Origin: an uncultured Bacteroidales bacterium
Lineage (GTDB): Bacteria; Bacteroidota; Bacteroidia; Bacteroidales; JAGOPY01
Assembly (NCBI GenBank): GCA_964447005.1
Contig: CAYUQP010000015.1
Span: forward strand, 22,484-86,483
Length of the DNA: 64,000 nucleotides
Reading direction: 5' to 3'
Part shown: piece after piece, positions 12,901 through 27,668 of the stretch
How the letters are laid out: the number at the start of each line of letters is the position of its first letter
Position numbering within the stretch: the stretch's first letter is position 1
Translations under genes and position numbers: made by a program
The notes under the pieces: generated by a model
Databases searched by the model: none
The model's input: only the letters and a program-made list of their open reading frames with translations
What the model was told of the DNA's origin: nothing

Positions 12901-12954
12901 AATACGTATTTCAGCACCCGGACCTTCACCCTGGGCGTGAATGTTGTTTTTTAA
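9943..12954 (+). CDS. susC: SusC/RagA TonB-dependent transporter
   Basis: N-terminal carboxypeptidase-regulatory-like domain, EVVVVGYG, PLIVIDG, IDVLKDASAAAIYGTRAASGVILITTKKG plug motif, C-terminal Phe. Confidence 0.97.
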   Translation: MNNHLRSLLKVGLTGLIMIFCMTGLYAQEKKVSGVVKDAETGETLIGVNVTAATNKTLGTVTDIDGNYSIAVPDTVNALSFSFVGYTTQVIEITSGKIDVKLSPGQQLTEVVVVGYGTQKTREVTSAVSSVKAEDFNRGNISDPIQLIQGKVAGLSIAKPGNDPNQDFTIRLRGLSTFGSNTEPLIVIDGIPGANMKSIDPQDIVSIDVLKDASAAAIYGTRAASGVILITTKKGEFVPGGKTFNVEFGASLTYETIARTVSNLSADDYLSLTEGDSTNHFGYTTDWFDEITSPSLSQTYNLAMSGADENTNYRVAANYREVDGVVMGTGFNQLNGRFNLSQKALKDKLTFDLNLSTTLRNEKYSPSEALQYATIFNPTAPITAEDPFSEEWGGYFQRPAFYFYNPVAIIEQNDLDGKKYNIQGGFKGTYEIIKGLKASAFYSLTSNNDLYGTYYSKNSLWTAHGTGSHEGFARRETKDYFNHMLELTGSYEKTIEKVTFSVLGGYSWQQATNEGFWAFGKGFLSDDFSYNDLGSASGDLPNNQMFDSWKDRTTLIGFYARATANYDNGIFLTANFRRDGSSMFGENAKWGNFPGVSAGVDLARYIEIPYVDRLKVRGGYGVTGNLPPNPYLSKLLYNATNDYFFYNGEYIQAYGPTRNNNPDLQWETKHDLGFGLDFAVLDYRITGSIDYYQSNSEDLILEYDVPVPPYPASRMWLNLGELKNSGLEFNVQYQTLSTREFVWNTELNFAKFFETTLVKITDTLTGNQSTLWFGQLGDPGLIGIQTIKLEEGGPVGQIYAPIYVYTDTAGAMWYETILRDSTGAQIGTDTTKSGVPKDGYSVIGNGLPKFQFGWGNTFSYKGFYLNFFLRGVFGHSLVNVNNAKFGVPKALGIQSGMDIINDYADVTDGPSYSDIHVEKANFVRLDNWSLGYNFKLKKNEYVESLKVYFSGQNLFTITNYSGVDPEVRYEDSADNNNALAPGLDRQNTYFSTRTFTLGVNVVF

Positions 12955-12981
12955 TTGCAAATCAGATAACATCAATCAGCT

Positions 12982-14547
12982 ATGAAAAAGTTCTTAATCA
13001 CCCTGAAAATATTCCTGGCCATCGCACTACTGGTGATGGTCCAACCTTCCTGCACCAAACTGGATGAAGAAGTCTATTCCGACCTGACTGCCGATAATTT
13101 CTTTTCAAATCCGGACAATTTGGTTTATGCCTTTGGTAAAGCATACACTTCATTGTACGACCTGGTCGGGCATAAATACGGTATGCAGGGCAGCGAATGC
13201 GGCACCGACATGCTGATCGTTCCCCAGCGGGGAGGCGACTGGCTCGACGGCGGTGAATGGCACCGCTTTCACCGTCATACCTGGACCTCGCAGGATAATT
13301 ATTTCAACCACTGGTGGACCAATATCTACGCCAACGGGGTCAGTACAGTAAACCGGCTCATCTATGAGTTCGAAAGCCTTGAAGGAGTTGATGTTACGCC
13401 GGCAGTTTCAGAACTGCGGGCCCTGCGCGCTCTCTACTACTACTGGCTGGTCGATAAATTCGGCAACGTGCCGATCGTGGATGACTTCAACGGCCCTGCC
13501 AAGCCGTTCACTTCCTCACGACAGGAAGTGCACGACTGGGTTGTAAGTGAGTTGCTCGAATCCATGCCATACTTATCCAGGGAAACCGGGCTGCCGATGT
13601 ACGGCAGGATCAATTACTACACAGCTCAGATGATCCTTGCCAAAATGTACCTCAATGCAGCGGTTTTCACCGGTACGGCACAATGGGAAAAAGCCCTGGC
13701 AGCCTGCGATACGATCATCAATTCCGGATTGTACAACCTTAACGCCAATTACTTTGACAATTATATCGCCGATGCGTCCGGTTCCAGGGAGGTGATCCTG
13801 GCCGTTCCTTTTGATGAATTACTGGCAGACGGATTCGAAATCCACCTCTTCTCGCTGCATTATGGATTGCAGCAGAAATACGGCTTCACGGCCGCTACAT
13901 GGAACGGTATCTGCTTCCAGGAAAGCTTCTTCAACCTGTTCGGCGCGGAAGATCTCCGCCGGAACGGTATGCTTTTCGGGCCGCAATTCTTCGACGACGG
14001 GACCCCGGTAACCGACCCGAGCTGGGAAACCTTCAGTCCCACCCAACCTTTTGACCCGGACGGAGCCCAGGTCAACCTCACACCGTTCGTTAACCAGCTC
14101 GAACCCAACTGCCTCAGGCAATGCGGCGCGCGTGTGGCCAAATTCCCCTTCATCGCCGCCAGTCCAAGGTATATCAGCAACGATTTCCCGATCTTCCGCT
14201 ATGCCGATGTGCTGCTTATGAAAGCCGAATGCCTGCTGCGTCTTGGACAGGCCGGTGATGCATTGCCGATTGTGAACGAAGTCAGGGCCCGCGCCAGCGC
14301 AGGTGATCTTGATGAGGTCACCTTCCTTGACCTGCTTGAAGAGCGCGGCCGCGAGCTATTTTGCGAAGGGCACCGCCGGTCGGACATGATCCGCTTTGCA
14401 GACGAGATCCCGGCTGATAATCCGCTGAATTATTTCGCTCCCAGGTGGGAAAAGGAAAATGTCACGGAGCCTTTCCGCAGCCTGTGGCCTATCCCGCAGA
14501 GCAAACTGGATGTGAACGAGAATCTGGAACAGAATACGGGGTACTAA
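12982..14547 (+). CDS. susD: SusD/RagB glycan-binding lipoprotein
   Basis: Lipobox QPSC, LRALYYYWLVDKFGNVP, FRYADVLLMKAE, ERGRELFCEGHRRSDMIRF, terminal QNTGY. Confidence 0.96.
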   Translation: MKKFLITLKIFLAIALLVMVQPSCTKLDEEVYSDLTADNFFSNPDNLVYAFGKAYTSLYDLVGHKYGMQGSECGTDMLIVPQRGGDWLDGGEWHRFHRHTWTSQDNYFNHWWTNIYANGVSTVNRLIYEFESLEGVDVTPAVSELRALRALYYYWLVDKFGNVPIVDDFNGPAKPFTSSRQEVHDWVVSELLESMPYLSRETGLPMYGRINYYTAQMILAKMYLNAAVFTGTAQWEKALAACDTIINSGLYNLNANYFDNYIADASGSREVILAVPFDELLADGFEIHLFSLHYGLQQKYGFTAATWNGICFQESFFNLFGAEDLRRNGMLFGPQFFDDGTPVTDPSWETFSPTQPFDPDGAQVNLTPFVNQLEPNCLRQCGARVAKFPFIAASPRYISNDFPIFRYADVLLMKAECLLRLGQAGDALPIVNEVRARASAGDLDEVTFLDLLEERGRELFCEGHRRSDMIRFADEIPADNPLNYFAPRWEKENVTEPFRSLWPIPQSKLDVNENLEQNTGY

Positions 14548-14575
14548 ATGGGTAACCATTCTGTGGTTTCAAACT

Positions 14576-14683
14576 CCAACGACTAAAGCCGTTGGTTACT
14601 ATAGCCTTACAAATAAAACCGACGACTTCAGCCGTCGGTTTTTATTTTGCAACTAACTTGGAACCAACGGCTTTAGTCGTTGG
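14576..14683. repeat. Cluster of three REP-like palindromes; the central copy forms a bidirectional terminator
   Basis: Inverted copies at 14576-14595 and 14664-14683 flank aaataaaaccgacg-acttcagc-cgtcggtttttattt (14611-14647) between convergent genes. Confidence 0.85.
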
Positions 14684-14703
14684 AGTTCACAACCAAAGCG
14701 AGG

Positions 14704-16107
14704 TTATTTCACATATACCAGGTATTCCCAAGGTTTCAGCCTCACCGCATCACCCTTCTTAAACGTCATCTCTTCTTCCGAAAACCATTCTTTGTAGTTG
14801 CCAGCAAAGGCATCCCCTTTCAATTTGAATTCCTTTACCTCACCCGTCAGGTTTGCCAGCACAAAAACCCTGTCGCCTTCTTTATCACGGGTGAAAGCAA
14901 ATACAGCGGTGTCGGCAGTCGTATTGATCCGCTTCAGCTTTCCTCCCCAGTTCCCGTTCCAGAGCGGCTGGTAGGAATGTTTCAAAGCGAAAAGCTTCTG
15001 GTAGAAGGGCTCGAGGCGGTAATCCCCCCAGATGATGGTGTCTTTGTCAAAAAACCTCAGGCGTTCGTTGAAGGCAGATTCCTGGCCGCTGTAAACCAGT
15101 GGCATGCCAGGCAGGGTCGCCGTCAGCACGGCCATGCAGACCGAGCCGGCGCCCATCCGCTCGAATTCCGTCCCCTGCCAGGAGTTCTCGTCATGGTTCG
15201 AGGTAAATGCCATCCGGTAAGCATCGGTAGGATAAAGGGTGTCCTGTTTCCGGAAATAGTCTTCCAGCGCGTTGGCGTTTTTCTCTCCTTTGGCAATGGA
15301 ATTCATGATATGATGCAACTCCCAGGCGTACGACATGTCGAAGGCCCGGAAATGGTGCGGTGGCTCTTCGGCTTCTGCCAGCATGAAAACCGGCTTGATC
15401 CGGTCCAGTTCGGCCCGGACCTGCTCCCAGAAATCCAGTGGCACCATGCCGGCGACATCACAGCGGTAACCATCGATATCGGCCTCCGTGACCCAATATT
15501 TAAACGCATCGATCATGGCCGCACGCATCCCGGGGTCATCATAATTAAGATCTGCGACGTCGCTCCAGTCATAAGGAGAAACAAAATTACCCAGTGAATC
15601 CTTCGTATACCATTCCGGGTGTTCCGTGATCCAGGCATTGTCCCACGAACTGTGGTTGGCCACCCAGTCGATGATCACCTTCATCCCCTGGGCATGTGCG
15701 GTCCCGACAAGTTTTTTGAAGTCATCAAGGGTGCCGAACTCAGGATTGACTCCTTTATAATCCTTCACGGAATAATAGCTTCCCAGGCTGCCTTTGCGGT
15801 TCTTCTCCCCGATCGGATGGATCGGCATCAGCCACAGGATATCCACACCCATTTTTTTCAGGCGGGGAATATGCTCAAGGAAGGCGTTAAAAGTCCCTTC
15901 GGGAGTGAATTGCCTGATGTTCACCTCGTAAATGTTCGCGTTGCGGCTCCATTGCGGATGAACGACAAAGCTCTGCGGCGGTTCTTTCGTCGCCGGGGTT
16001 TCCTTTTTGGGGGCATTGCAGGCTACAACCAACAGGATCAGGATCACCGGCAGGAGCAGCAGTAGCTCAGATAAGGTTCGGGTAATTGTCATTTTATTGA
16101 TATTCAT
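14704..16107 (-). CDS. GH13 alpha-amylase-family lipoprotein
   Basis: Lipobox LVVAC; YEVNIRQFTPEGT, DWVANH, GYRCDVAG, LAEAE, SNHDEN. Confidence 0.92.
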   Translation of the reverse strand: MNINKMTITRTLSELLLLLPVILILLVVACNAPKKETPATKEPPQSFVVHPQWSRNANIYEVNIRQFTPEGTFNAFLEHIPRLKKMGVDILWLMPIHPIGEKNRKGSLGSYYSVKDYKGVNPEFGTLDDFKKLVGTAHAQGMKVIIDWVANHSSWDNAWITEHPEWYTKDSLGNFVSPYDWSDVADLNYDDPGMRAAMIDAFKYWVTEADIDGYRCDVAGMVPLDFWEQVRAELDRIKPVFMLAEAEEPPHHFRAFDMSYAWELHHIMNSIAKGEKNANALEDYFRKQDTLYPTDAYRMAFTSNHDENSWQGTEFERMGAGSVCMAVLTATLPGMPLVYSGQESAFNERLRFFDKDTIIWGDYRLEPFYQKLFALKHSYQPLWNGNWGGKLKRINTTADTAVFAFTRDKEGDRVFVLANLTGEVKEFKLKGDAFAGNYKEWFSEEEMTFKKGDAVRLKPWEYLVYVK

Positions 16108-16119
16108 TTATTTATTTAT

Positions 16120-18498
16120 TTAGTTATTGTATAATATTTCAAACGACCAGGGTTGAAGATCTATCGAAAGCTCCCCGTCTTTAATTGCGAAATCATTCCC
16201 GAATCCGGATTTCATTCCCTCCGCATCCAGCCAGCCGGGCAAACTCACCGTCAGCTTTACCGGTTCATTGCGCTTGTTGAACACAACTATCACGGAATTG
16301 TCAAAGTAATTCCTGGCATAGGCATAAATCTTGTCACTGACCTGCAACGTCATGAAATTCCCGTAGATCAGGGCCAGGTTTTCTTGCCTGATCCTGGCCA
16401 GCTTCGTTGCTTTCTCCTTTGTCGTGAGCTCCAGGGAGGTAAGGTCCGCGAACTTCATCTGCCGCCGCGAATCAGGGTCATTGCCGCCGGGGATTCCGAG
16501 CTCATCACCGTAATAGATCACCGGCAGCCCCGGAATGGTCATGATAAAGGCCGTCAGCATCGAGAGCTTCTGGTATCCGACCGGATCACCGACGCCGATA
16601 TCTCTTTTCCACCCGGCCATCTTTGCATTTTCACCAAACTTCAGGTCTCCGCCGGCGTAAGAGATAAACCGGCCCCTGTCCTGATTGCCGGTGATGTATC
16701 CCATCCGGTTCGTATTTCCGTAAAAGTCAAAACTGGTCTGCAGCGTGTTGTCGAGATTGGTGAACGGATCCTCTTCGCGTGCAAACACACCGATGGCTGC
16801 ATCGTAAACATTAAAATCGAATTGCCCGTCGAGCATTCCTGCACCCACGTAACCGGATATGAGCTCAGGCCCGCCGTAGGTTTCCCCGATCTGGTATATA
16901 TCACGCCCTTCACCCGCAACCACCTTCTCCTTGATCTTTTTTGTCAGCGTTCTCCAGAAGATCTCCGGGATGTGCTTGGTGGCGTCATGCCTGAAACCAT
17001 CCAGGTTGTATTCCCGCAACCACCAAACTGCCGAGTCGGTCAGCATTTCCGTCACTTCAACCTGCTGCAGGTCCAGCGTGGGCAGAAAATCATCGAACCA
17101 GGTGGTGAGCCGGTGCTCGTCCCACTTCTCGGTATTTTTCGTTCCGTCCGGCAGGTAAAGACTGGTGGTCCAGTCAGGATGCTCAATATAATAAGGATGC
17201 AGTTCATGGACATGATGTGCCACGAAATCCAGCAGGACGTTCAGCCCGTTGTCATGGGCGGTCTTCACCATTTCTTTCAACTCTGCCGATGTACCAAAGC
17301 GCGGGTCAACCTGCGTGAAAGAGATCGGCCAGTAGCCGTGGTAGGCCGAGAATTTGGTCTTCGGGTCATTCCATTGGCCATACGCGCCTTTCGGGTTCAG
17401 CACGACAGGGGAAATCCATATTGTATTCACGCCCAGGTCATTAAAATATCCTTCCCTGATCTTTTGCGTAACGCCCGCAATATCGCCGCCAAAAAAATCG
17501 GCCTTCGGCAGCACCAGCGCCGGATCGCCAATCGGCTCGTCATTGCCGGGATTACCGTTGTGAAAACGGTCCACGAAAACATTGTAGATGATCTGTGCTT
17601 CCATATCGGTACGCATGACTTTCGCGGGATCCGAAACCACGCTGCCGTTGTTAAGCGGTATCATGAGATCATTCGATACACCGGCATCGTTGTATGAATA
17701 AATCCTGATGAACGAACGCTCCATCGATGTTGCCTCTGCAGGAATTGAGATTTCAAGCTTATTTTCTTCTAATTCAAGATATGACTCATCCAACCGGATA
17801 TTTTGCCAGAAGACGAAAAACGCTTCCGGTTTGGTTGTCCATCTTATTGAGAGGCTGTTTCTACCCTCTTCGATATCATCGGTATAAAGAAATGGCAGCA
17901 GCGATTTTTCCACCAGGCCCACTTTCAGGACCGAGTTGAATGCCCCGTTGTTATTATCCACCGAATCCGGATTGGCAGGATCAACTCTCCATTTCCCATC
18001 AGTGACAAGCTGGTACTGATACCTGCCCGGATTCAGCGGAAGGACAACCGACCAGTTTCCATTTTCCAGTTTCAATTCCGTCCTCGACGGGGTCCAGCCG
18101 TTGAATTCGCCGGCAAGCTGCACACTGCTGTATTCCTTACCGGCAGGATCAAAGGTATAAATGAAGTCCGTTTTCCTGCTTTTCATGACCAGGACCGATT
18201 GCCAACCGCCATTGCTCCATACTTTCATTTCAGAAAGCGGCTCAATGATCCCGGAAGGTTTAAAACTTGCAGTAGCTTTATCCGGCGACAACACAGCTTT
18301 CAACCTCCCGAGGTAAACTGAATCGACGATCTCCGGATTTGGCACGAAATCTGTTATAATCAGTTCCGTTTGGTCTTTGTCAAGACGCAGGGGAAGTGCA
18401 AGGCCGGGTATAAAATGATGGGAAGGCAGGGGGGACGGGGACTTGCTGCAGGCAGCCAGGATCAGGAACAACCATAACAGGGGAACGATTCGCTTCAT
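16120..18498 (-). CDS. GH13 lipoprotein with CBM48/AMPK-type glycogen-binding domain
   Basis: Lipobox LAAC; VQLAGEFNGW...YQYQLVTDGKWRVDP; DFVAHH, GFRHDATKH, IGETY, GNQD; start taken at MKRIV. Confidence 0.9.
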   Translation of the reverse strand: MKRIVPLLWLFLILAACSKSPSPLPSHHFIPGLALPLRLDKDQTELIITDFVPNPEIVDSVYLGRLKAVLSPDKATASFKPSGIIEPLSEMKVWSNGGWQSVLVMKSRKTDFIYTFDPAGKEYSSVQLAGEFNGWTPSRTELKLENGNWSVVLPLNPGRYQYQLVTDGKWRVDPANPDSVDNNNGAFNSVLKVGLVEKSLLPFLYTDDIEEGRNSLSIRWTTKPEAFFVFWQNIRLDESYLELEENKLEISIPAEATSMERSFIRIYSYNDAGVSNDLMIPLNNGSVVSDPAKVMRTDMEAQIIYNVFVDRFHNGNPGNDEPIGDPALVLPKADFFGGDIAGVTQKIREGYFNDLGVNTIWISPVVLNPKGAYGQWNDPKTKFSAYHGYWPISFTQVDPRFGTSAELKEMVKTAHDNGLNVLLDFVAHHVHELHPYYIEHPDWTTSLYLPDGTKNTEKWDEHRLTTWFDDFLPTLDLQQVEVTEMLTDSAVWWLREYNLDGFRHDATKHIPEIFWRTLTKKIKEKVVAGEGRDIYQIGETYGGPELISGYVGAGMLDGQFDFNVYDAAIGVFAREEDPFTNLDNTLQTSFDFYGNTNRMGYITGNQDRGRFISYAGGDLKFGENAKMAGWKRDIGVGDPVGYQKLSMLTAFIMTIPGLPVIYYGDELGIPGGNDPDSRRQMKFADLTSLELTTKEKATKLARIRQENLALIYGNFMTLQVSDKIYAYARNYFDNSVIVVFNKRNEPVKLTVSLPGWLDAEGMKSGFGNDFAIKDGELSIDLQPWSFEILYNN

Positions 18499-18578
18499 GG
18501 GAATTTGTGTTTGGTTATGCAAATATCGGTATTAAAGGGACTCCCCGGGGAGGTTGAATCCGTTATAAGAAAAATTTG

Positions 18579-18586
18579 TAATTTTG
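18579..18586 (+). promoter_or_regulatory. -7 promoter element (TAATTTTG)
   Basis: Exact consensus match, with TTG about 22 nt upstream. Confidence 0.65.
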
Positions 18587-18641
18587 CTGCGTCTTACTAC
18601 CACATTGTTAGTAATCAACATTAAAACCTGATCGATCGAGC

Positions 18642-20135
18642 ATGAAAATTGAAAATTCGATGGCAACTGTATTAAATGATAACCCGGTGATCTACGAGAT
18701 CAATACATTTATCTGGTTAAGGGAACTGGGAGAAAAATACCGCAAAAAGATCACGCTGGCCAATGTGCCTGTCAAAGAATTCGATGAGCTGGCGGCAATG
18801 GGATTCGATGCAATCTGGCTGATGGGTGTCTGGAAACGAAGCCATGCGGGCCTGGAAATTGCAAAAAAGCATGAAATTATCATGAAAGAGCTTCAGGAAG
18901 CACTGCCCGACCTGCAGGAAGAAGATATTGCCGGTTCACCGTATTGTATCAAAGAGTACACGGTGGATCCGTCAATCGGCGGAGATAAGGGCCTGGCCAG
19001 GACCCGGAAAGAAATGGCCGCGCGCGGCATGAAACTGATCCTGGATTTTGTGCCGAACCACGTGGCCCCCGATCATCCGTGGACCAAATCGAACCCCGGC
19101 TTTTTTATCACCGGAACGGAACAAGAAATGTCGTCCCGTAACGAAGACTTTTATAAATCCGGGAAAAATATTTACGCAAAGGCCCGTGACCCTTTTTACC
19201 CGCCTTGGCCTGATGTTTTGCAGTTAAATGTATTTGACAATGGCTTGCGTGAAAAGCTGCTCGAAACGCTGAAAACGATCGCCGCTGCCAGCGATGGCAT
19301 CCGTTGTGATATGGCCATGCTGGTGATGAACGATATTTTCGGAAAGAACTGGGGTGAAAAAGCAGGACAGGCACCTGCGGTGGATTTCTGGAATTTCATG
19401 ATCCCCGCGGTGAAAAAGGAGTTCCCCGGTTTCATGTTCATCGCGGAGTCATACTGGGATACGGAACCGGCGCTGATTGCCCAGGGCTTTGACTATTGTT
19501 ACGATAAAAGATATTATGATTACCTGAAGGAAGGAGCGCCCCACATGTTACAGCACCTGTCGGAAATGGACAAATACCGGGAAAAGCTTCTCCGGTTTAT
19601 TGAAAACCACGATGAACCGAGGGCGGCAGGGCTTTTTAACTTCATGAAGAACAGGGCTTACGCCCTGGCGTCCCTCACCCTTCCGGGGCCACGACTAATC
19701 CATGACGGGCAAATCACAGGACGTACCGTAAAAGTGCCCGTTTTCCTGTCAAGAAGACAGGATGAGCCGGAGCAGGCGGAAATCAGCAAGTTTTACCTGC
19801 AATTGCTGAAATTGCTGAGGTTTGATGCGGTGCGCAAAGGGAAATGGGCCCTGTGCAACGTTTCAGGATGGATTGACAACCAGACATGCCGGAATCTACT
19901 GACCTTTGAGTGGGTCTGCGAACACGAAACCCTTATGATCGTAGTCAACCTGAGTGATTCCTCCTCCCAGGCATATGTGAAATCAGGCTTTCAATACAGG
20001 CCTGGCAGAACTTATCAACTGTTTGATGTTACTTCAGGGGAACTCTATCTCCGCGATGGCGAAGAAATGAACGATCCGGGGCTTTATATCGTTTTATCCG
20101 GTTGGGGGGTGCATGCATTTAGCATTGAGCATTAG
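18642..20135 (+). CDS. Cytoplasmic GH13 alpha-amylase-family protein
   Basis: IYEINT, GSPYCI, DFVPNH, GIRCDMAM, IAESYW, ENHDE; no signal peptide. Confidence 0.9.
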   Translation: MKIENSMATVLNDNPVIYEINTFIWLRELGEKYRKKITLANVPVKEFDELAAMGFDAIWLMGVWKRSHAGLEIAKKHEIIMKELQEALPDLQEEDIAGSPYCIKEYTVDPSIGGDKGLARTRKEMAARGMKLILDFVPNHVAPDHPWTKSNPGFFITGTEQEMSSRNEDFYKSGKNIYAKARDPFYPPWPDVLQLNVFDNGLREKLLETLKTIAAASDGIRCDMAMLVMNDIFGKNWGEKAGQAPAVDFWNFMIPAVKKEFPGFMFIAESYWDTEPALIAQGFDYCYDKRYYDYLKEGAPHMLQHLSEMDKYREKLLRFIENHDEPRAAGLFNFMKNRAYALASLTLPGPRLIHDGQITGRTVKVPVFLSRRQDEPEQAEISKFYLQLLKLLRFDAVRKGKWALCNVSGWIDNQTCRNLLTFEWVCEHETLMIVVNLSDSSSQAYVKSGFQYRPGRTYQLFDVTSGELYLRDGEEMNDPGLYIVLSGWGVHAFSIEH

Positions 20136-20137
20136 AA

Positions 20138-20238
20138 GTTTTGAGTTCTTAGTTTTGAGTTTTGAGTTTGAGTTATTGAGTTATTGAGTTATTGTTTCAA
20201 TTAAGTAACCAGGAACTTGGAACCAGGAACCAGGAACT
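20138..20238. repeat. Heptamer tandem repeats (TTTTGAG/TTATTGAG, then GGAACCA/GGAACTT) filling a convergent intergenic gap
   Basis: Read directly from the sequence. Confidence 0.8.
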
Positions 20239-22083
20239 TCATCTTAATTCAAGGATGTACGCTGTTTCAGGTTGAAGATCAATGCTTTCTTCGAATAAAT
20301 ACTTCTCCCCTGTCATTACATCCATACCTTCTTTATAATCGTTAAGCACTTCGTTGAACCTGCTGAGGTCCAACTGCTTGTTTTCTTTATTCTTATTGAT
20401 GACTACCATCACGGCATCCATATCCAGGTAACGGAAATAGACATAGATCCCGTCCTGCGGAACAAACTGCTTCAGCTTCCCGTAATGAATAACCTCCGAG
20501 CCCTTGCGCCAGTTCAGCAACTTCCGCAGGTATTCATGCCCCTCCTCACTGACGACTGACGACTGACGACTGACGACTGACGACCCCCACTCCCCTCCCG
20601 GAAAATTCTCCCGGATATACCCGTGCCCTTTCGGCTCCTCGCCTGTCATCAGATACTCGGTGCCGTAATAAAGCATGGGAATGCCCCTCGTAGTTAAAAG
20701 CACCGCCATGGCCATCCTGTATTTCGCAAAATCCTCCCCGACACTGGTATAAAACCTGGTCAGATCGTGATTATCCGCGAAGATCACATTCATGAACGGA
20801 TCGGAATAAATAAAATCCTGTGAAAGCACGTAATAGATCCGTGCTAAGCCGCTCGTCCAGCCTTCATTCTCAACCAGCGCGTCTTTCAGCGCGTAATGCA
20901 TCGGAAAATCGGTAACCGATCTCAAGCGTGAGGTATAATCCCCGCTGACCGGCGAACCATTCTGCCAGTAGGCGGTGTGGGTTTCTTTCTGCAGCCAGGT
21001 CTCGCCGACCACGTCGAAATCCGGGTACTCCTCCATCACACGCTGCATCCAGCCAGCCATGAAATCCTTGTAGGAATAAGGATACGTGTCCATCCGGATG
21101 CCGTCAAGGCCGGCAAACTCGATCCACCAGATGCTGTTCTGGATCAGATAACTGGCAAGGACTTCATGGCTCTGGTCCAGGTCGGGCATCGGTGTGTCGA
21201 ACCAGCCGGTCTGCATTCTTTCCCGGTCAAAATCAGAAGCATACGGATCCATCACCGTTTCAGCCCGGAAATTCGACCGGGTGAACTCCGGAAACTGATG
21301 CACCCAGTCCTCCGCCGGAAGATCTTTGATCCACAAGTGATTAGCCCCGCAGTGATTGAATACCATGTCCATGATCACTTTAATGCCCTTCGAATGGCAG
21401 GCATCGACCAGGGATTTGTAATCCTCATTGGAACCAAACCGGGGATCAACGCGGTAAAAATCGGTAATGGCATAACCATGGTAAGAATAAGCGGCCATAT
21501 TGTTCTCCAGGACCGGGTTGAGCCAGATAGCGGTTACACCCAGATCTGACAGGTAGTCCAACTCCTGCACAATCCCTTTGATATCGCCCCCGTGTCTCCC
21601 GTTCGGATTGGCCGGGTCAGCCTTCTCAAGCATGTCCGCAGCCGAATCATTGGTGGTATCTCCGTTGGAAAACCGGTCGGGCATGATCAGGTAGATCACA
21701 TCCTCTTTGCCGAAACCCTGCCTGCTTTTCGATCCTTCTTCACGACCCCTCAGCTCGTATTCTTCGAAGAAGCGGACCTCGCGCATGTATTCGAAAACAA
21801 TGGGAATCTTCCCCGGAACGGCACTTGCGCTAACCTCCAGGTCCAGTACCAGGTAATTGGGGTTCTCAAGCCGTACGATGCGCTCAAGCTCTACACCGGG
21901 ATAGTTGAATTTCGGCTCGGTTTCTGATATGTTTTCCCCGTAACACATAAGCTGCAGGGAACTGTTTGTCATGCCAGCCCACCAGAAAGGAGGATCGATC
22001 CGGAGTGCAGGATTCTGCGACAGGACAATAAAAGGCAGACTTAAAAGAAAAATTGTAACCGTATATTTGATCATTCGGTGCAT
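20239..22083 (-). CDS. Neopullulanase/cyclomaltodextrinase (SusA-like GH13)
   Basis: RIDPPFWWAGM N-domain, IYLIMPDRF, DMVFNH, GIRMDTYPY, VGETW, DNHD, C-terminal beta domain; start moved to MHRMIK because a promoter element overlaps 22110. Confidence 0.9.
   Translation of the reverse strand: MHRMIKYTVTIFLLSLPFIVLSQNPALRIDPPFWWAGMTNSSLQLMCYGENISETEPKFNYPGVELERIVRLENPNYLVLDLEVSASAVPGKIPIVFEYMREVRFFEEYELRGREEGSKSRQGFGKEDVIYLIMPDRFSNGDTTNDSAADMLEKADPANPNGRHGGDIKGIVQELDYLSDLGVTAIWLNPVLENNMAAYSYHGYAITDFYRVDPRFGSNEDYKSLVDACHSKGIKVIMDMVFNHCGANHLWIKDLPAEDWVHQFPEFTRSNFRAETVMDPYASDFDRERMQTGWFDTPMPDLDQSHEVLASYLIQNSIWWIEFAGLDGIRMDTYPYSYKDFMAGWMQRVMEEYPDFDVVGETWLQKETHTAYWQNGSPVSGDYTSRLRSVTDFPMHYALKDALVENEGWTSGLARIYYVLSQDFIYSDPFMNVIFADNHDLTRFYTSVGEDFAKYRMAMAVLLTTRGIPMLYYGTEYLMTGEEPKGHGYIRENFPGGEWGSSVVSRQSSVVSEEGHEYLRKLLNWRKGSEVIHYGKLKQFVPQDGIYVYFRYLDMDAVMVVINKNKENKQLDLSRFNEVLNDYKEGMDVMTGEKYLFEESIDLQPETAYILELR
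20549..20584 (-). repeat. Perfect (TCGTCAG)5 heptamer repeat inside the neopullulanase CDS
   Basis: ctgacga x5 on the plus strand, translated as SSVVSRQSSVVS. Confidence 0.95.
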
Positions 22084-22107
22084 ATCAGAAAATCTATTAG
22101 TGAATTT

Positions 22108-22115
22108 CAAAAGTA
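22108..22115 (-). promoter_or_regulatory. -7 promoter element (TACTTTTG) for the SusA-like gene
   Basis: Exact consensus match. Confidence 0.6.
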
Positions 22116-22244
22116 AATAATTTGTTGCGGATTTCTAAAAAATCTCCTTCCCCCGTTTGGCTGTTGAACCTCACAAAATTTTTCAACACCCGGTTATTAA
22201 TAAATATTGAATCGTCAATATAAAACCGGTATTTTTTTAAAGTA

Positions 22245-22371
22245 AACTTACATCCGGAATCTGAATTGGCCAATATCATTCCAAGACCGGGTTGCTGTTA
22301 GAGTCAGATCATAATAGCCGAGAAACTTCCCGGACTGAAAAAAGCCCTGCACGTTTGTTCAGGGCTTTTTT
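22245..22371 (+). ncRNA. Candidate small structured RNA ending at an orphan terminator
   Basis: Lies between divergent genes that each have their own promoter; possible pairings TCCGG/CCGGA, TTGGC/GCCGA and ATCTGA/TCAGAT; strand uncertain. Confidence 0.35.
22338..22371. terminator. Bidirectional Rho-independent terminator with no CDS ending near it
   Basis: AAAAAAGCCCTG-loop-CAGGGCTTTTTT. Confidence 0.75.
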
Positions 22372-22417
22372 GCATGTTGTCCTGTCCTTTAGCTGACCTT
22401 CGAAACAGATAAATTGC

Positions 22418-22425
22418 TAATTTTG
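22418..22425 (+). promoter_or_regulatory. -7 promoter element (TAATTTTG) for the TreS-like gene
   Basis: Exact consensus match. Confidence 0.65.
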
Positions 22426-22493
22426 CCGCCGCCAACGAGCATGGATCAATTCTCATTACTTGTTGATTATAAATTATTTATAAAGATACCGGC

Positions 22494-24206
22494 ATGAACG
22501 GCAAATATTCACTTTTATATACTATCTGGAAGGAACTCTATCCGGATGAGGCGACCGGCCTGCTGGACGGATTTACGGCCGAACTCGACCAATTCCTTGG
22601 CGAGCTTTCCCTTCCGGACCTGGAAAAGGAATGGTACAAGGACGCCGTTGTGTATTCACTCTATGTTGATTTGTTTGCCGGGGATTTCCGGGGCCTCACC
22701 AATCGTCTCGGCTATCTGAAAGACCTTGGGGTGAATTGTCTCTGGCTCCTTCCAATCCTGGATTCGCCCATGCGCGATGCAGGCTTTGATATCAGCGATT
22801 ACCGGAAGATCAGGAAAGAACTCTCCGGGCTCGGTGCAAATGCAACCGACGAGCAGGTCGACCGGCTGTTCACCGATTTTCTCAACAAAGCCCACGAAAA
22901 TGGGCTGAAGGTGATCTTCGATATCGCTACCAATCATATCTCAGACCAGCATCCCTGGTTCCGCGAAGCGGTCAGTTCCAAAGACAACCCTTACCGGGAT
23001 TTCTTCATCTGGAGCAAAACCGGCAAGGAATATGCCGATGCAAGGATCATCTTCTACGGGATCGAGGAAAGCAACTGGAAAAAACAGGGCGACGAGTATT
23101 ATTTCCACCGTTTCTTTGACTTCCAGCCCGACCTCAACTACAGGAACCCGAAAGTGCTCGTGGAAATGTCGCGCAACCTGATGTTCTGGTTGAAACGCGG
23201 CGTCGACGGTTTCAGGGCCGATGCCATACCTTATATATGGAAGGAAGAAGGAACTGCCTGTGAAAATCACCCGAAAACCCATACGGTGGTGAAGTTCTTC
23301 AGGGCAGTGATCGACCTGGTCAGGCCCAATACGCTCCTGCTTGCCGAAGCATGCCAGAAACCGCACGAGGTCGTGAAATACTTCGGTAACGGAAATGAAT
23401 GCAACGCCGGATACCATTTCCCGCTGATGCCCATGATCTTCAAATCAGTTGCCATGGCCGGCAAAGGACCGGTAGCCACGACCCTTTCACGGCAAGTCAC
23501 CCCGGATATCCCCGCCGGGGCGCAATGGTTCACCTTCCTGCGTTGCCACGACGAACTGAGCCTCGAACTGGTTTATGTCACCGAAGAAGACCGCAAATAC
23601 ATCCATGAGCACTACTGCCGCCAGCCCCGGTGGGATTTCCGCCTCGGGCAGGGCATCTCCGCCAGGCTGTCAGAACTCATGGAAAGGGACCCGGCACGGA
23701 TCGGACTGATCTATTCGGTCATGCTCACCCTGCCCGGAACACCGGTCATCTACTACGGCGATGAATTCGGCAAGCTCAACGACGAAGCCTACTACCAGGA
23801 AATGAAAGTTGCCGTGGGAAAAGATGACACGCGTTTCCTTGTCCGCGGCAAGATCAACTGGAAGGAGGTTGAAGCTGCACTGGCCGATCCCGCCTCCTAT
23901 GAATCTGCCGTTTTCGACCGGGTGAGGTCGATGCTTAAAGCGCGGAATGAATATCCTGTATTCGGCAGGGGAACCCTGGAGTGGGTGGATCTTAAGAAAT
24001 CCGACGGCAGCCCGGCTGAAGAAGTGATGGCCTACTACAGGACTGTGAATGAATATAAAATCCTTGTGGTTCAGAATCTTTCAGGGAAAAAGATCAGCAT
24101 AAAATGGGATATTCCCTTCCGGAGAAACCTGCTGGGCAATGATGTATTAATTCATGATCATCAGCTTGAACTGGAAGGATTTAGTCTTTGTTGGTTAATG
24201 ACTTGA
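22494..24206 (+). CDS. TreS-like GH13 (maltose alpha-D-glucosyltransferase/trehalose synthase family)
   Basis: WYKDAVVY, SPMRDAGFDISDY, FFDFQPDLNY, GFRADAIPY, LLAEACQ, FLRCHDELSL, LPGTPVIYYGDE. Confidence 0.85.
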   Translation: MNGKYSLLYTIWKELYPDEATGLLDGFTAELDQFLGELSLPDLEKEWYKDAVVYSLYVDLFAGDFRGLTNRLGYLKDLGVNCLWLLPILDSPMRDAGFDISDYRKIRKELSGLGANATDEQVDRLFTDFLNKAHENGLKVIFDIATNHISDQHPWFREAVSSKDNPYRDFFIWSKTGKEYADARIIFYGIEESNWKKQGDEYYFHRFFDFQPDLNYRNPKVLVEMSRNLMFWLKRGVDGFRADAIPYIWKEEGTACENHPKTHTVVKFFRAVIDLVRPNTLLLAEACQKPHEVVKYFGNGNECNAGYHFPLMPMIFKSVAMAGKGPVATTLSRQVTPDIPAGAQWFTFLRCHDELSLELVYVTEEDRKYIHEHYCRQPRWDFRLGQGISARLSELMERDPARIGLIYSVMLTLPGTPVIYYGDEFGKLNDEAYYQEMKVAVGKDDTRFLVRGKINWKEVEAALADPASYESAVFDRVRSMLKARNEYPVFGRGTLEWVDLKKSDGSPAEEVMAYYRTVNEYKILVVQNLSGKKISIKWDIPFRRNLLGNDVLIHDHQLELEGFSLCWLMT

Positions 24207-24267
24207 AAAAATAAGAGGATTGATCAGAGGTCAATTTTATATAGCTGGTTTGTTTTGGCTCAGAACA

Positions 24268-24332
24268 CCAACGACTAAAGCCGTTGGTTCCGAGTGTGTT
24301 ACAAAATATCAACCGACGGCTTTAGTCGTCGG
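24268..24332. repeat. Inverted pair of REP-like palindromes
   Basis: ccaacgactaaagccgttgg (24268-24287) and ccgacggctttagtcgtcgg (24313-24332). Confidence 0.85.
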
Positions 24333-24439
24333 CGATGCGAAATAAAGAGGTTGCTCTGATTTTTGTGGCAGCTTCTCAAACGAAAAAATATAACTTACGG
24401 CCTTGATAAACCCTCAGTTTTCGAAAAATATATAAATAG

Positions 24440-27400
24440 ATGGATTCACAAGCTTTTGACGCGGTAATATTCGACCTCGACGGGGTGATCACCAAAACGG
24501 CGCTGGTGCACAGCGCTGCCTGGAAAAAGATGTTCGATGCCTATCTCCGGGAACGGGAATCGAAATACGGTGAACCCTTCAGGGAATTCACACAAAAAGA
24601 CGACTACCTGCCGTATGTGGATGGTAAACCCCGCTACAAAGGGGTTGAATCGTTCCTCGCCTCGCGTGGCATCAGCATTCCTTACGGCGATCCCTCGGAT
24701 GATCCGTCAGTGGAAACCATCTGCGGCATCGGGAACCGGAAAAACATCGCTTTCAATGAGGCGCTCCGGTCGGATGGCGTGGAGACTTATGAATCCACCG
24801 TTGAGCTGATCCGCCGGCTCAAAGAGGAAGGCATCCGGGTCGGGGTGGCCTCCTCGAGTAAAAACTGCAGGCAGGTGCTCGAAACAGCCGGGCTGCTCGA
24901 TTGGTTCGAAACCCGCGTCGACGGCGAGGTCAGCGCCGAACTGGGGCTGAAAGGAAAGCCCGAACCGGATATTTTCACAGTGGCTGCCGATAACCTGGGC
25001 GTCAGCTACGACAGGGCCGTGGTGGTGGAAGATGCCGTATCAGGCGTGCAGGCAGGCAAAAAAGGAAATTTCGGACTGGTCCTGGGCATAGCAAGGGAAG
25101 AAAATGAACAGGAACTTTATGCCAATGGAGCCGATATCGTTGTAAAAGACATCGGTGAAATAGGCTTTGATGGAATACTGAACTGGTTTAAACAAGGCAT
25201 CTTCCTGGATAACTGGTCGATAAAATACCATGACTATGTCGCTGAAAAGGAAAAAACCCGGGAAGCCTTGCTGACCGTGGGCAACGGCTTCTTCGGAACC
25301 CGCGGCGCCATGCCGGAAGCCGAGCCGGGAAAATTCAACTATCCGGCAACCTACATGGCTGGCGTTTATAACCGCCTGGTCTCAAAAGTCGGCGACCGGG
25401 ATATTGAAAACGAGGATTTTGTCAACGTGGTTAACTGGGTTCCGGTCACATTTAAAATCAATGACGAAGACTGGTTCGATATCAATAAGACCCACATCCT
25501 TGAGGTAAAAAGGGTGCTGACATTCAACAACGGGTTGCTGGTGCGCAGGCTCGTGGTCAGGGACGGACATGGCAGGGAAACACTGATCGTGACCCGCCGG
25601 ATTGCCAGTATGGAGAACCCCAATATGGCTGCCCAGGAATACGCCATCACCCCCTTGAATTATACTGCCAGGATCACCGTGCGCTCCGGTCTTTACGGGG
25701 ACCATATCAACGCCGGGGTCGACCGCTACAGCCAGCTCAACCAGAAGCACATCGAACCGATTTTGCTCGGCTCCGAGGAAAACCACCAGTATATCGTGGT
25801 GAAAACCACAAGGTCGAACACGGTCGTAGCGGTTACGGCCAGGGTTAAAGTCTTCGAGGACGGGGACAGGATTTATGTCCATTTCAGCAAGAACCATTCG
25901 GCCGGAAGATCCAGGATTGAATTTTCGAAAAACGTGGAGCAGGGAATGGAACTGAAGGTACAGAAGATTGTATCGCTGTATCATAACCTGGGCAGGAAAG
26001 AAGAGGATCCCCTTGAAAAGGCACTGGATATCTGTAAGAAGTATAAGACCTTCGACGAGGTCCTTGAAAAATCGTCGCGCAAATGGGAAGAGATCTGGGA
26101 CCGCATCGATATACGGCTGGTGGGAGACCGCCTGGCACAAAAGCTGCTCAGGATGCACCTTTACCACACGCTGGTCACCACCTCGCCTCATAATACCGGC
26201 ATCGACGCAGGCATTCCCGCACGGGGGCTTCACGGTGAAGCCTACAGGGGACATATCTTCTGGGATGAACTGTTCATCCTTCCGGTCTACAATATGCACT
26301 TCAGGGAAATAGCCCGGTCGGTCCTGCTTTACCGTTACAGGAGACTGGACGAAGCACGCAAATACGCCGCCGAATACGGATACCAGGGCGCGATGTTTCC
26401 CTGGCAAAGCGGCAGCAACGGCCGGGAAGAGACCCAGGTGATCCATCTCAACCCGCTGTCAGGCGAATGGGGCCCCGATCACAGTTCCCTGCAGCGGCAT
26501 GTCTCGCTGGCCATTGCTTATAACGTCTGGCAGTACTTTCATTTTACGGGGGATATGAAATTCATGGAAGATTACGGTGGAGAGCTCTTATTTGAGATCT
26601 GCCGTTTCTGGGCGAGCAAAAGTAAACTCAACAGGGCCACCGGAAGATATGAGATCATCAAGGTGATGGGACCGGATGAATTTCATGAAAAATACAAGGA
26701 CACCGAAGAAGGCGGGCTGAAAGACAATGCCTACACCAACATCATGGTGGCCTGGATGTTCAGCAAGGCTAACCAGTTACTCGAAAAGATGGAGCCTGGG
26801 AAAAAAGCAGTGCTGTGCGATAAGCTCAGGCTCACCGGCGGCGAGACCGAGCGCTGGAATGATATCGCCTCGCGGCTGAACCTGGTGATCTCTCCCGAAG
26901 GGATCATCGCACAATATGACGGGTATTTCGATCTGCATGAACTTGATTTTGAATACTACCGTGCCAGATATGGCAATATTTACCGGATGGACCGACTGCT
27001 GAAAGCGGAAGGCAAAACACCCGATGAATATAAAGTGGCAAAACAGGCCGATACGCTGATGTCCTTCTATAACCTGAGCAAGGAAGAGGTCGATGGGATC
27101 CTGGGCCGCATGGATTACCACCTGCCGGAGGATTACCTGATGCGGAACCTGCAGTATTACCTGGCCAGGACCTCCCATGGCTCCACGCTGAGCCGCGTTG
27201 TCCATTCACAGCTCGCAAACCTCACCGGTGACCACCGGCTGAGCTGGGAGCTATACCTGGACGCCCTGACCAGCGATTACGCAGATATCCAGGGAGGTAC
27301 TACCGCCGAAGGCATTCACGCCGGCGTCATGGCCGGAACGGTCTGGGTGGCCCTGGCTTCCTTCGCAGGACTGAACCTCCACGGCGATTATCCCCGCTTC

Positions 27401-27595
27401 GATCCCAACCTGCCCGTGCACTGGCGCAGGATCAGCTTCTCCTTCACCTTCAGGGAGGATGATTACGAATGCGAAGTGACCCCCTGCTGTGTCCGCCTCC
27501 GTATCGACCGCGCAACAGCCGGCACGGCAAAAATCGGGATCAGGAACAAAGAATTTGAAATAATAACGGGTGAATGGGTGGAATTCGAAATCTAG
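24440..27595 (+). CDS. Fusion of a beta-phosphoglucomutase-family HAD domain and a GH65 disaccharide phosphorylase
   Basis: HAD motifs FDLDGVIT, GKPEPD, VEDAVSG; GH65 motifs GNGFFGTRG, RGLHGEAYRGHIFWDE, GPDEFHE, KQAD, HGSTLS. Confidence 0.92.
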   Translation: MDSQAFDAVIFDLDGVITKTALVHSAAWKKMFDAYLRERESKYGEPFREFTQKDDYLPYVDGKPRYKGVESFLASRGISIPYGDPSDDPSVETICGIGNRKNIAFNEALRSDGVETYESTVELIRRLKEEGIRVGVASSSKNCRQVLETAGLLDWFETRVDGEVSAELGLKGKPEPDIFTVAADNLGVSYDRAVVVEDAVSGVQAGKKGNFGLVLGIAREENEQELYANGADIVVKDIGEIGFDGILNWFKQGIFLDNWSIKYHDYVAEKEKTREALLTVGNGFFGTRGAMPEAEPGKFNYPATYMAGVYNRLVSKVGDRDIENEDFVNVVNWVPVTFKINDEDWFDINKTHILEVKRVLTFNNGLLVRRLVVRDGHGRETLIVTRRIASMENPNMAAQEYAITPLNYTARITVRSGLYGDHINAGVDRYSQLNQKHIEPILLGSEENHQYIVVKTTRSNTVVAVTARVKVFEDGDRIYVHFSKNHSAGRSRIEFSKNVEQGMELKVQKIVSLYHNLGRKEEDPLEKALDICKKYKTFDEVLEKSSRKWEEIWDRIDIRLVGDRLAQKLLRMHLYHTLVTTSPHNTGIDAGIPARGLHGEAYRGHIFWDELFILPVYNMHFREIARSVLLYRYRRLDEARKYAAEYGYQGAMFPWQSGSNGREETQVIHLNPLSGEWGPDHSSLQRHVSLAIAYNVWQYFHFTGDMKFMEDYGGELLFEICRFWASKSKLNRATGRYEIIKVMGPDEFHEKYKDTEEGGLKDNAYTNIMVAWMFSKANQLLEKMEPGKKAVLCDKLRLTGGETERWNDIASRLNLVISPEGIIAQYDGYFDLHELDFEYYRARYGNIYRMDRLLKAEGKTPDEYKVAKQADTLMSFYNLSKEEVDGILGRMDYHLPEDYLMRNLQYYLARTSHGSTLSRVVHSQLANLTGDHRLSWELYLDALTSDYADIQGGTTAEGIHAGVMAGTVWVALASFAGLNLHGDYPRFDPNLPVHWRRISFSFTFREDDYECEVTPCCVRLRIDRATAGTAKIGIRNKEFEIITGEWVEFEI

Positions 27596-27668
27596 CCCCC
27601 TCCCCGGCCCTCCCCCATTCGGGAGGGAGAGGGAGCAATGGAACTTTGGAACTTTGGAACTTTGGAAC
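27596..27668. repeat. C/G-rich hairpin followed by (GGAACTTT)3 octamer repeat
   Basis: cccctccccggccctccccc...gggagggagaggga, then ggaacttt x3. Confidence 0.75.

Follow-up and report, generated by a model that had tools for sequence, protein, structure and literature searches.

The starch-utilisation locus and the array-bearing enzyme

The 64,000-nt window (the whole stretch of DNA analysed here) contains a starch-utilisation locus at positions 9943..27595, as defined by Pfam and by gene tables of orthologous loci. According to Pfam, the locus comprises a SusC-like gene (9943-12954), a SusD-like gene (12982-14547), five GH13 genes and a gene encoding a GH65 maltose-phosphorylase/HAD fusion (24440-27595). 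The minus-strand CDS at 20239..22083 encodes a 614-aa protein, assigned to GH13_46 enzymes of the SusA/cyclomaltodextrinase type (neopullulanase) by Pfam, PDB sequence matches and Foldseek. In this protein, an N-terminal hydrophobic leader is followed by the Cyc-maltodext_N domain (residues 28-115 according to Pfam), the alpha-amylase catalytic domain (133-497) and the Cyc-maltodext_C domain (537-612). Sequence matches in PDB are 9fyz, 9dcq and 1h3g (E about 1e-165 to 1e-170), and the full-length Foldseek comparison with 3edd, 9fyz and 9dcq yields TM of 0.90-0.94.

The GH13_46 subfamily (SusA and the Flavobacterium cyclomaltodextrinase) is characterized by the order of domains, that is, an N-terminal immunoglobulin-like domain, a catalytic TIM barrel with domain B and a C domain, by MPDLN in region V, by a Trp-Trp pair between regions V and II, and by the aromatic Y-[GSP]-Y at the end of region II, in addition to the GH13 triad of Asp nucleophile, Glu proton donor and Asp transition-state stabiliser (Marecek & Janecek 2022, PMC9781549). 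The window protein has this domain order (Pfam and Foldseek) and the triad, D332 (GIRMDT), E361 (VVGETW) and D440 (ADNHD), which is invariant in our 104-sequence alignment. The double Trp and the aromatic end of region II are also present (NSIWWIEF and GIRMDTYPYSY), with W319, W320 and Y336 being invariant, and the protein is probably an active enzyme of this type. There is a one-residue departure in region V, seen in this species only, which reads MPDLD, while relatives at <=91% identity have MPDLN. The residue following E361 is Thr (GETW), differing from the subfamily feature; SusA itself also has Thr here, and this difference does not argue against GH13_46 membership.

A perfect heptanucleotide array, G(TCGTCAG)5T, lies 81% of the way along the CDS, in its 3' fifth, at 20548..20584 on the minus strand (Tandem Repeats Finder: period 7, 5.3 copies, 100% matches, score 74). 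It is not a chance occurrence, since the top array score in ten Markov shuffles of the window does not exceed 48. The ORF at 20239-22110(-) carries the array in frame, with the translation ...FPGGEWG-SSVVSRQSSVVS-EEGHEYLRKLLNWRK. When counted in phase from the Trp499 codon, by comparison with orthologues, the array consists of six heptamers, GGGTCGT, four copies of CAGTCGT, and CAGTGAG. The CGTCAGT strand is stop-free in all frames and thus translatable, while ACTGACG contains TGA whichever frame is used.

An earlier, sequence-only reading of this DNA had described a perfect in-frame (TCGTCAG)5 in a neopullulanase CDS, about 100 codons upstream of the stop, where a change by one or two units would frameshift the C-terminal part of the protein. 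All three statements agree with our data: the array is seen in Tandem Repeats Finder output, sequence and translation alike, and 102 codons separate the last repeat codon from the stop. Moreover, as a period of 7 is not divisible by three and the array lies within the CDS, slippage by a single unit would truncate the product. In particular, arrays of 3, 4, 6 or 7 units produce in silico truncations of 507-527 aa, and those of 2, 5 or 8 units stay in frame (607, 614 and 621 aa, respectively).

Loop replacement and its distribution among orthologues

Translation, alignments and the AlphaFold2 (AF2) model delimit the repeat-derived segment as codons Gly500-Ser512 (GSSVVSRQSSVVS, positions 20548..20586, minus strand). 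Alignments to SusA and its homologues place this segment in the distal part of the beta8-alpha8 loop, which in SusA, and likewise in every homologue at <=61% identity, has a canonical form of constant length. Hence the proposal that the repeat had replaced a surface loop is borne out by the alignment to SusA homologues that had been suggested as its check. The AF2 model has mean pLDDT of 90, residues 500-510 being the sole internal stretch with pLDDT below 50, ahead of helix 513-527. The repeat-coded residues are thus predicted to form a disordered surface loop, with the remaining fold intact. On the barrel, the segment is situated at the catalytic face, that of the beta-to-alpha loops, right after the conserved GHG.IR and FPGGW motifs.

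The flank of the array, TGAGGAGGGGC (20538..20548, minus strand), lies where helix alpha8 begins and runs from the third base of the Ser512 codon through Glu513-Glu514-Gly515 to the first base of that for His516. The same 11-mer occurs at positions 1-11(+), as had been noticed previously, against a chance expectation of 0.05 matches. This occurrence is confirmed, but its proposed link to the repeat did not hold. The GAGGAGGGG part of the flank encodes the conserved Glu-Glu-Gly that opens helix alpha8, and the orthologue L001 has it too, so the flank is ancestral coding sequence and not a repeat element. No array adjoins the copy at 1-11, and the shared 11-mer is best read as a coincidence.

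The 104-sequence alignment consists of 51 homologues at <=61% identity and 53 closer relatives. All 51 distant homologues have a constant canonical stretch of 37 aa, DFPGGW.GD..NAF...GRT..Q.EAF.Y..LL.WR, and all 53 closer relatives have heptamer-derived segments of 34-70 aa. The lengths of the latter are quantised, most being 36 aa (n=17), 43 aa (n=12) or 50 aa (n=3), with one of 57 aa, where 36, 43 and 50 aa correspond to 6, 9 and 12 heptamers, with each three-unit step adding 7 aa. In the DNA of the orthologues, the arrays begin directly 3' of TGG. The array of L210 contains 10 units, mainly CAGTCGT, and the one of L209 contains 12 units of the form C[AG]GT[CT][AG]N, while in L001 and L004 the arrays are interrupted by inserts. 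One insert, GGAGCGAAGCGACGTCC with the hairpin that follows it, recurs within the arrays of L001 (with one mismatch), L003 (twice) and L087; it has no copy in the window, and no inverted repeats or duplications were identified when GGAGCGAAGCGACGTCC was considered as a MITE/REP-type element.

The loop replacement is not recent, as it is common to about 50 diverged orthologues. Neighbour joining on loop-masked sequences groups 50 of the 53 repeat-type sequences in a single pure clade. The other three (P0060, P0064 and P0065) lie outside this main clade, so the replacement may have had more than one origin. The array could have arisen by insertion or by local expansion; when local origin was considered, a GTCAG or CAGTC core was found in the homologous stretch of 5 of about 48 canonical orthologues (that is, in few cases).

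A pattern S-x-V-x-S/G-x-Q recurs in the repeat-type segments of about 53 orthologues, and D-S-L/D-S-R motifs are seen in some of them. The retention of segments with this pattern, the motifs and the catalytic-face position of the loop would be expected if the loop had been selected, the flexible Ser/Val/Gln-rich segment having gained a function such as cleft gating, partner binding or periplasmic O-glycosylation. This explanation seems distinctly unlikely. The wide range of lengths and sequences with tolerance of unrelated inserts, the disorder predicted by AF2, and the lack of an Asp-Ser/Thr sequon in the window peptide all argue against it. Moreover, related heptamers generate the S-x-V-x-S/G-x-Q pattern in any frame, and thus selection is not needed to account for it.

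Stability of the array and its genomic setting

The sequence-only reading had further proposed that the array creates ON/OFF variation in maltodextrin breakdown. Such a phase-variable contingency locus would toggle, by slipped-strand mispairing, between the full-length protein (5 units) and truncated ones (4 or 6 units). The perfect array, a unit length that is not a multiple of three within a CDS, the loss of helix alpha8 and the C domain upon a change by one or two units, and the change of heptamer number at this site over long times are all consistent with it. Nevertheless, one and the same array is carried by the window and by L081, L082, L083 and L086 from four JGI samples, whose genes are 99.8-99.95% identical. 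These five independent assemblies of the species represent at least four samples, each consensus reporting the majority allele, so that rare unit-number variants could be hidden. Its length is unchanged in the two nearest relatives, L084 (90% DNA identity, 3 substitutions in the array) and L085 (87%, 2 substitutions). Since the array is degraded there only by point substitutions, the peptide encoded in L084 and L085 is almost unchanged although the DNA repeat is imperfect. Hence no repeat-number polymorphism is seen among the consensus assemblies of the window and L081-L086. Within the reach of the data, both outcomes that the proposal itself had set as speaking against it are observed: an invariant number of units, here among assemblies, and a nearly identical peptide in homologues that lack the perfect repeat.

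No truncated allele at >=85% identity was found among the best 120 database proteins. The only two truncated orthologues have other explanations. In P0062/L088, an array of at least 13 units is joined to foreign DNA with 65% GC, making it a chimeric contig, and in P0063/L087 a single nucleotide is deleted from the codon ahead of Trp, outside the array and with no change in units. The name of the L087 contig, 'contig_', suggests a long-read assembly.

Logan k=31 contigs end 30 nt inside the 37-nt array. This is because k-mers made up purely of array sequence also occur at many other loci (their depth is 20-60x that of the flanks), and so 4, 5 and 6 units are indistinguishable in these contigs; alleles of three or fewer units were not assembled in any of the 8 runs. 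Considering also that the tract has just 5 units, lies at the far end of the CDS and belongs to a periplasmic catabolic enzyme, we regard phase variation as very unlikely. ON/OFF switching is not supported by the available data, though rare variants are possible.

The window contains 49 arrays, compared to 2-12 Tandem Repeats Finder rows in shuffled sequences, and 29 of the 49 lie within the intergenic 9.4% of the window, with periods 7 and 8 dominating. The earlier suggestion that the repeat is of an intergenic type is therefore well founded, 7-8-nt arrays being typical of the intergenic DNA of this genome. Heptamer arrays (AGTTTTG)~7.6 and (AACCAGG)4.4 at 20137..20237, directly after the stop codon of the gene, serve as unconstrained comparators: they are identical within the species, while both the unit and the length differ in L084 and L085 at 87-90% identity. 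The units in the window are diverse, no single specific unit (e.g. TAACTGA or CCCCAGT) being shared by its arrays, and the exact in-CDS unit occurs once in 64 kb, yet it is common in metagenomes. Arrays of this unit, (CGTCAGT)n, are found in frame elsewhere, in inter-domain linkers of unrelated genes, so in-ORF copies have the stop-free orientation and occupy tolerant positions (the disordered loop and linkers).

The concentration of 7-8-nt arrays in intergenic DNA, often beside stop codons or promoters, suggests some sequence-level role or process, and regulation has been proposed for the TAACTGA and GGGNATC repeats (PMC4679880, PMC4692102). One could thus ascribe to the array a role in DNA or RNA (a protein-binding site, an internal regulatory element or a structure), its translation being incidental. 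We consider this highly improbable, as no RNA structure is predicted at the array (z = -0.12), the locus has no Rfam match, no promoter or terminator signal at the array exceeds that in shuffles, and the unit sequence varies among orthologues. Finally, arrays of this unit do misassemble elsewhere (L088 is chimeric at the array, and the Logan contigs break within it), but an array created or mis-sized by the assembler, a concern raised initially, has negligible probability and is excluded by the agreement to the base of the five independent assemblies, the array being in frame and equal in length in orthologues.

Interpretation and comparison with known systems

Taken together, these observations make it likely that the array represents a long-unit microsatellite that became fixed in frame and forms an old, stable and clade-wide repeat-derived loop in a SusA-type enzyme. 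In an ancestor within a clade of uncultured sludge/digester Bacteroidales, a heptamer array of the type that fills the intergenic spacers of this genome would have taken over the beta8-alpha8 loop in its final ~17 residues, starting directly after the invariant Trp499. Its translation yields a Ser/Val/Gln/Arg-rich peptide, predicted to be a disordered surface loop. Over long times, heptamers would have been gained and lost, presumably by slippage, and a small hairpin-bearing element would occasionally have been inserted, with only frame-keeping lengths surviving, mostly those of 6, 9 or 12 heptamers. In the window species and its nearest relatives, the array would have been frozen at six phase units and subject to point substitution like ordinary coding DNA. 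As the array is perfect in the species and degraded in the two nearest relatives, recent homogenisation by slippage could replace this reading of stasis.

A bolder interpretation, that an active genome-wide process seeds and remodels 7-8-nt arrays and writes new loops, the GH13_46 loop being a recurrent target, with up to four separate acquisitions suggested by the tree, tuned in three-heptamer steps, seems unlikely, and the same applies to its weaker version, in which the 5-unit tract slips at a low rate and generates a small OFF subpopulation. On the bolder view, heptamer arrays would quite generally supply these Bacteroidales with new protein linkers that are able to evolve.

As an instance of a long-unit microsatellite that has become fixed within a coding loop, the array is clean but otherwise ordinary. 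It presents a case of a non-triplet microsatellite absorbed into a catalytic domain with long subsequent persistence, where the history of slippage would be visible solely as lengths quantised in three-unit (7-aa) steps. For annotation, it follows that a perfect non-triplet repeat in a CDS alone is no evidence for phase variation. In GH13_46 enzymes, what follows the invariant FPGGW appears to be freely replaceable and may be a possible site for loop engineering. Moreover, the unusually repeat-rich intergenic DNA of uncultured digester Bacteroidales breaks and mis-joins assemblies.

Among GH13_46 references, Bacteroides thetaiotaomicron SusA (9FYZ), Flavobacterium sp. 92 cyclomaltodextrinase (1H3G/3EDD) and BcGH13A (9DCQ) share the domain order, the catalytic residues and the signature motifs with the window enzyme, whose gene also belongs to a Sus-like starch locus. 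Unlike them, the window enzyme has a repeat-coded peptide in place of the W.GD..NAF...GRT..Q loop before helix alpha8, and MPDLD instead of MPDLN in CSR-V.

Heptanucleotide repeat systems have been described for TAACTGA in Beggiatoaceae, Cyanobacteria and Bacteroidetes (MacGregor 2015, PMC4679880) and for GGGNATC in Xanthomonas and Nostoc (Rehm 2015, PMC4692102). As in these and in the cyanobacterial STRR repeats, the window has tandem 7-nt units in many arrays per genome, enriched in intergenic DNA near gene ends, with occasional in-ORF copies, only in the stop-free orientation and mostly structurally peripheral. The window unit ACTGACG and TAACTGA have ACTGA in common. STRR1 and STRR3 share a CAGT/ACTG core with the window unit. 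These resemblances are a lead and not evidence for a common origin. Unlike the known systems, the window genome mixes many units with no dominant one, and the in-ORF copy, located in a catalytic domain whose enzyme family is well characterised, is traceable across about 50 orthologues, where lengths come in steps of three units.

SSR contingency loci, such as tetranucleotide repeats in genes and 7-bp repeats in hmw promoters of Haemophilus influenzae (PMC8262952, PMC12721329), resemble the window array in having a perfect tandem repeat, which in the window lies within a CDS and has a unit length not divisible by three. They differ from the window array in that the latter shows no unit-number polymorphism among assemblies or close relatives, and its observed orthologous alleles are all in frame, apart from the chimera and the 1-nt deletion. 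Tracts in known phase switches are longer and mostly lie close to the 5' end of a gene with a surface or restriction-modification function, while the window tract is short and lies in the 3' fifth of a gene for a periplasmic catabolic enzyme of a free-living sludge bacterium. The same view of the tract length and position in switches is attributed to Lin and Kussell where they are cited in PMC4692102.

A further parallel is leuA of Mycobacterium tuberculosis, an in-frame coding VNTR with 57-bp repeats (PMC2704214). There, too, a repeat appears to be tolerated in a metabolic enzyme, with lineage-specific copy number and the protein not destroyed. Unlike that of the window array, the leuA unit is a multiple of three, so all changes of its copy number would stay in frame, whereas in the window array only every third one would do so.

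The heptamer array and its host enzyme

The array identified by Tandem Repeats Finder (TRF) has period 7 and occupies positions 20548-20584 (5.3 copies, 100% matches, score 74), reading G(TCGTCAG)5T on the minus strand; in Markov shuffles of the window the top array score never exceeded 48. The minus-strand ORF that bears it (20239-22110) encodes a 614-aa protein from the ATG at 22083, where translation of the array gives SSVVSRQSSVVS between the flanks FPGGEWG and EEGHEYLRKLLNWRK, with the stop 102 codons further. TRF and translation thus agree with the sequence-only reading, which had placed a perfect in-frame array about 100 codons before the stop. The opposite strand, ACTGACG, contains TGA, and hence coding is possible in one orientation only. 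The predicted frameshift of the C-terminal domain on gain or loss of one or two units also holds in silico: the frame is kept with 2, 5 or 8 units, for products of 607, 614 and 621 aa, while 3, 4, 6 or 7 units lead to a premature stop and a product of 507-527 aa. The reported recurrence of the array flank at the window start is real as a sequence match (the 11-mer TGAGGAGGGGC at 1-11 and 20538-20548(-)), but is treated here as chance. The nearest array is 46 nt from the copy at 1-11, and GAGGAGGGG beside the repeat comprises the codons of the conserved Glu-Glu-Gly with which the next helix starts, being also present in the orthologue on contig L001.

The protein contains Cyc-maltodext_N, Alpha-amylase and Cyc-maltodext_C domains and has full-length matches to SusA of B. 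thetaiotaomicron (9fyz, E 1.7e-169), BcGH13A (9dcq) and Flavobacterium cyclomaltodextrinase (1h3g). Its AlphaFold2 model, built from a 104-sequence alignment (mean pLDDT 90, pTM 0.89), superposes on these structures with TM 0.90-0.94. Most GH13_46 signatures set out by Marecek and Janecek (PMC9781549) are found, in particular the WW pair, YPY ending region II and the catalytic D332/E361/D440, with MPDLD in region V versus MPDLN in GH13_46. The gene belongs to a complete Sus-like starch locus (9943-27595) with a SusC/SusD pair, five GH13 genes including the array host, and a GH65/HAD fusion. The five GH13 genes differ in architecture, one having an AMPK1_CBM/CBM48-type module, and the 1051-aa fusion combines HAD (beta-phosphoglucomutase-like) with GH65 maltose phosphorylase. 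The nearest genome records are uncultured Bacteroidales MAGs, and the sequence is present in sequencing runs of metagenomes from sludge, wastewater and digesters.

Replacement of a loop across the clade

When the 104-sequence alignment is sliced at this region, each of the 51 sequences with <=61% identity has a canonical stretch of constant length (37 aa, DFPGGW.GD..NAF...GRT..Q.EAF.Y..LL.WR), while all 53 closer sequences differ from it after the invariant Trp (Trp499 in the window protein), with slices of 34-70 aa and peptides such as QSAVGGQQSAVGGQ, QSSVVSRQSSVVS and QLTVGSRQLTVDS. The proposed loop replacement is therefore correct, but it is old and common to a clade. The loop-masked neighbour-joining tree places 50 of the 53 repeat-type sequences in a single pure clade, while the remaining three branch immediately outside, among three canonical ones, which suggests one main origin, with additional independent origins possible.

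In DNA, the corresponding segments of the orthologues are arrays of heptamers starting directly after the TGG codon; counted in this phase, the window array has six units. Of the 10 units in contig L210, most are CAGTCGT, the unit of the window array, and the 12 in L209 follow C[AG]GT[CT][AG]N. Slice lengths of the repeat-type sequences cluster at 36 aa (n=17), 43 (n=12), 50 (n=3) and 57 (n=1), a step of 7 aa being three heptamers. The arrays of L004 and L001 are broken up by inserts. An extra insert of GGAGCGAAGCGACGTCC followed by a small hairpin (GGAGCG(A/G)AGCGACGTCC plus short hairpin) occurs within the array at the same protein position in three different orthologues: L001 (4455-4644), L003 (2201-2393, twice, with copies at 2260 and 2307) and L087 (4493-4508). 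Peptides such as AERRPDFVGI and AKRRPERSEG result from its translation, and it could be a mobile or REP-like element of small size that targets the arrays; no copy was found in the window. Of about 48 canonical orthologues, only 5 have the core pentamer in the homologous stretch. The array may derive from an insertion of intergenic-type DNA or from expansion in place.

Internally, the model drops below pLDDT 50 at residues 500-510 alone, with helix alpha8 beginning at 513. The functional part of loop 8 (GHG.IR, FPGGW) is conserved and lies upstream of the replaced segment. Selection for a function of the repeat-derived loop itself is an unlikely explanation of the array.

Constancy of the unit number among assemblies

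The identical perfect array is present in five independent assemblies of the species, namely the window and L081, L082, L083 and L086 (JGI samples 3300010356, 3300009690, 3300009687 and 3300009868), whose genes are 99.8-99.95% identical; unit numbers were compared between assembled sequences, as contigs at k=31 break in the array and cannot distinguish 4, 5 and 6 units. Array length is also unchanged in two more distant genes, L084 (90% nucleotide identity, three point substitutions) and L085 (87%, two point substitutions), with no indels and a substitution rate close to that of the remaining gene. Intergenic arrays just past the stop codon, serving as an internal control, are identical within the species and differ in unit and length in L084 and L085, so unconstrained arrays turn over on this timescale, while the coding one does not. 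No truncated close allele was found among the 120 best database proteins. The suggested ON/OFF switching of the enzyme is not upheld by these observations, and a true phase-variable switch is quite improbable.

Two distant truncated proteins were rejected as OFF alleles. P0063 (L087) has a 1-nt deletion in the codon preceding Trp. In P0062 (L088), an array of at least 13 heptamers (2000-2140), with a higher-order 21-nt unit of three variant heptamers (CAGTCAG-CGGTCAG-CGGTCAG), gives way abruptly to foreign 65%-GC DNA encoding DUF1616. L088 is a chimeric metagenome contig joined at the shared array, and thus repeats of this kind cause misassembly.

A role of the array at the DNA or RNA level is very unlikely, as no RNA structure, Rfam family, or promoter or terminator signal was found at the locus, and an assembly artefact is scarcely credible. 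The array is probably a fixed, translated long-unit microsatellite forming a predicted disordered surface loop, which would be under ordinary coding constraint within the species and would undergo rare three-unit length changes and insertions over long times.

Repeats elsewhere and known systems

The exact array unit has no other occurrence in the rest of the 64-kb window. In all, 49 tandem arrays were counted in the window, compared with 2-12 TRF rows in shuffled sequence; the intergenic 9.4% accounts for 29 of the 49, mostly with periods 7 and 8 and many different units. Nearly every intergenic spacer is crowded with 7-, 8-, 10- and 14-nt arrays, often directly past stop codons (e.g. 20137-20237, 27639-27668, 30010-30040, 41636-41790, 51546-51636, 52827-52859, 62354-62422), the longest being (TGGTCAGG)10.4 at 41708-41790. 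Some intergenic arrays are paired with their own reverse complement at a distance of 6-38 nt (58375-58517, 35379-35492, 6228-6335); the arms of these inverted pairs, 49-51 nt long and 76-82% complementary, could form long imperfect hairpins. The motif G(G/T)TGCAAAGGTAGGAAAAA, common to 51527-51548 and 58352-58372, has an array on one side and a minus-strand gene start on the other, and contains TAccTTTG on the minus strand. The Bacteroidetes -7 promoter consensus is TAnnTTTG, and by this likeness these arrays would be just upstream of promoters. The long spacer 43134-43693 holds an Rfam match to Acido-Lenti-1 RNA (RF01687, 43301-43346(-), 44.1 bits versus a gathering score of 37, full model covered).

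Besides the GH13_46 array, the only strong in-gene arrays are two in-frame ones on the plus strand of the gene for a T9SS-tailed PKD-domain protein (47893-49815(+)): (GCATGGAG)4.8 at 49536-49573 (38 nt), just before the C-terminal sorting domain, and (GTCGATTTTCGATG)2.6 at 49603-49638 (36 nt), inside Por_Secre_tail (aa 562-638). The ORF reads through both arrays, although neither has a unit size that is simply divisible by 3.

Outside the window, array-unit k-mers are 20-60x deeper than the flanks in sludge metagenomes, and more than 120 metagenome contigs (42-71% GC) carry (CGTCAGT) in at least 4 copies. In several of them, the repeat is read in frame at the linkers of recognisable, unrelated proteins of other organisms (L138 4031-5005, L152 1346-2593, L090 7614-9662, L123 2-1555), encoding SSVVSRQ-type peptides; the sites are glucosaminidase-LysM, the stretch separating the two glycosyltransferase domains in L152, helicase-WYL, and immediately N-terminal to Wzy_C.

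Heptanucleotide repeats are, according to Mrazek 2007 (cited in PMC4679880 and PMC4692102), the over-represented class of long SSRs in bacteria and mostly intergenic. For TAACTGA repeats of Beggiatoaceae, Cyanobacteria and some Bacteroidetes, the rare copies within ORFs have the stop-free orientation and lie at the periphery of proteins (PMC4679880). The array described here is neither a new kind of system nor a demonstrated contingency locus; it is a well-resolved further example of bacterial heptanucleotide repeats, in a well-known enzyme family.
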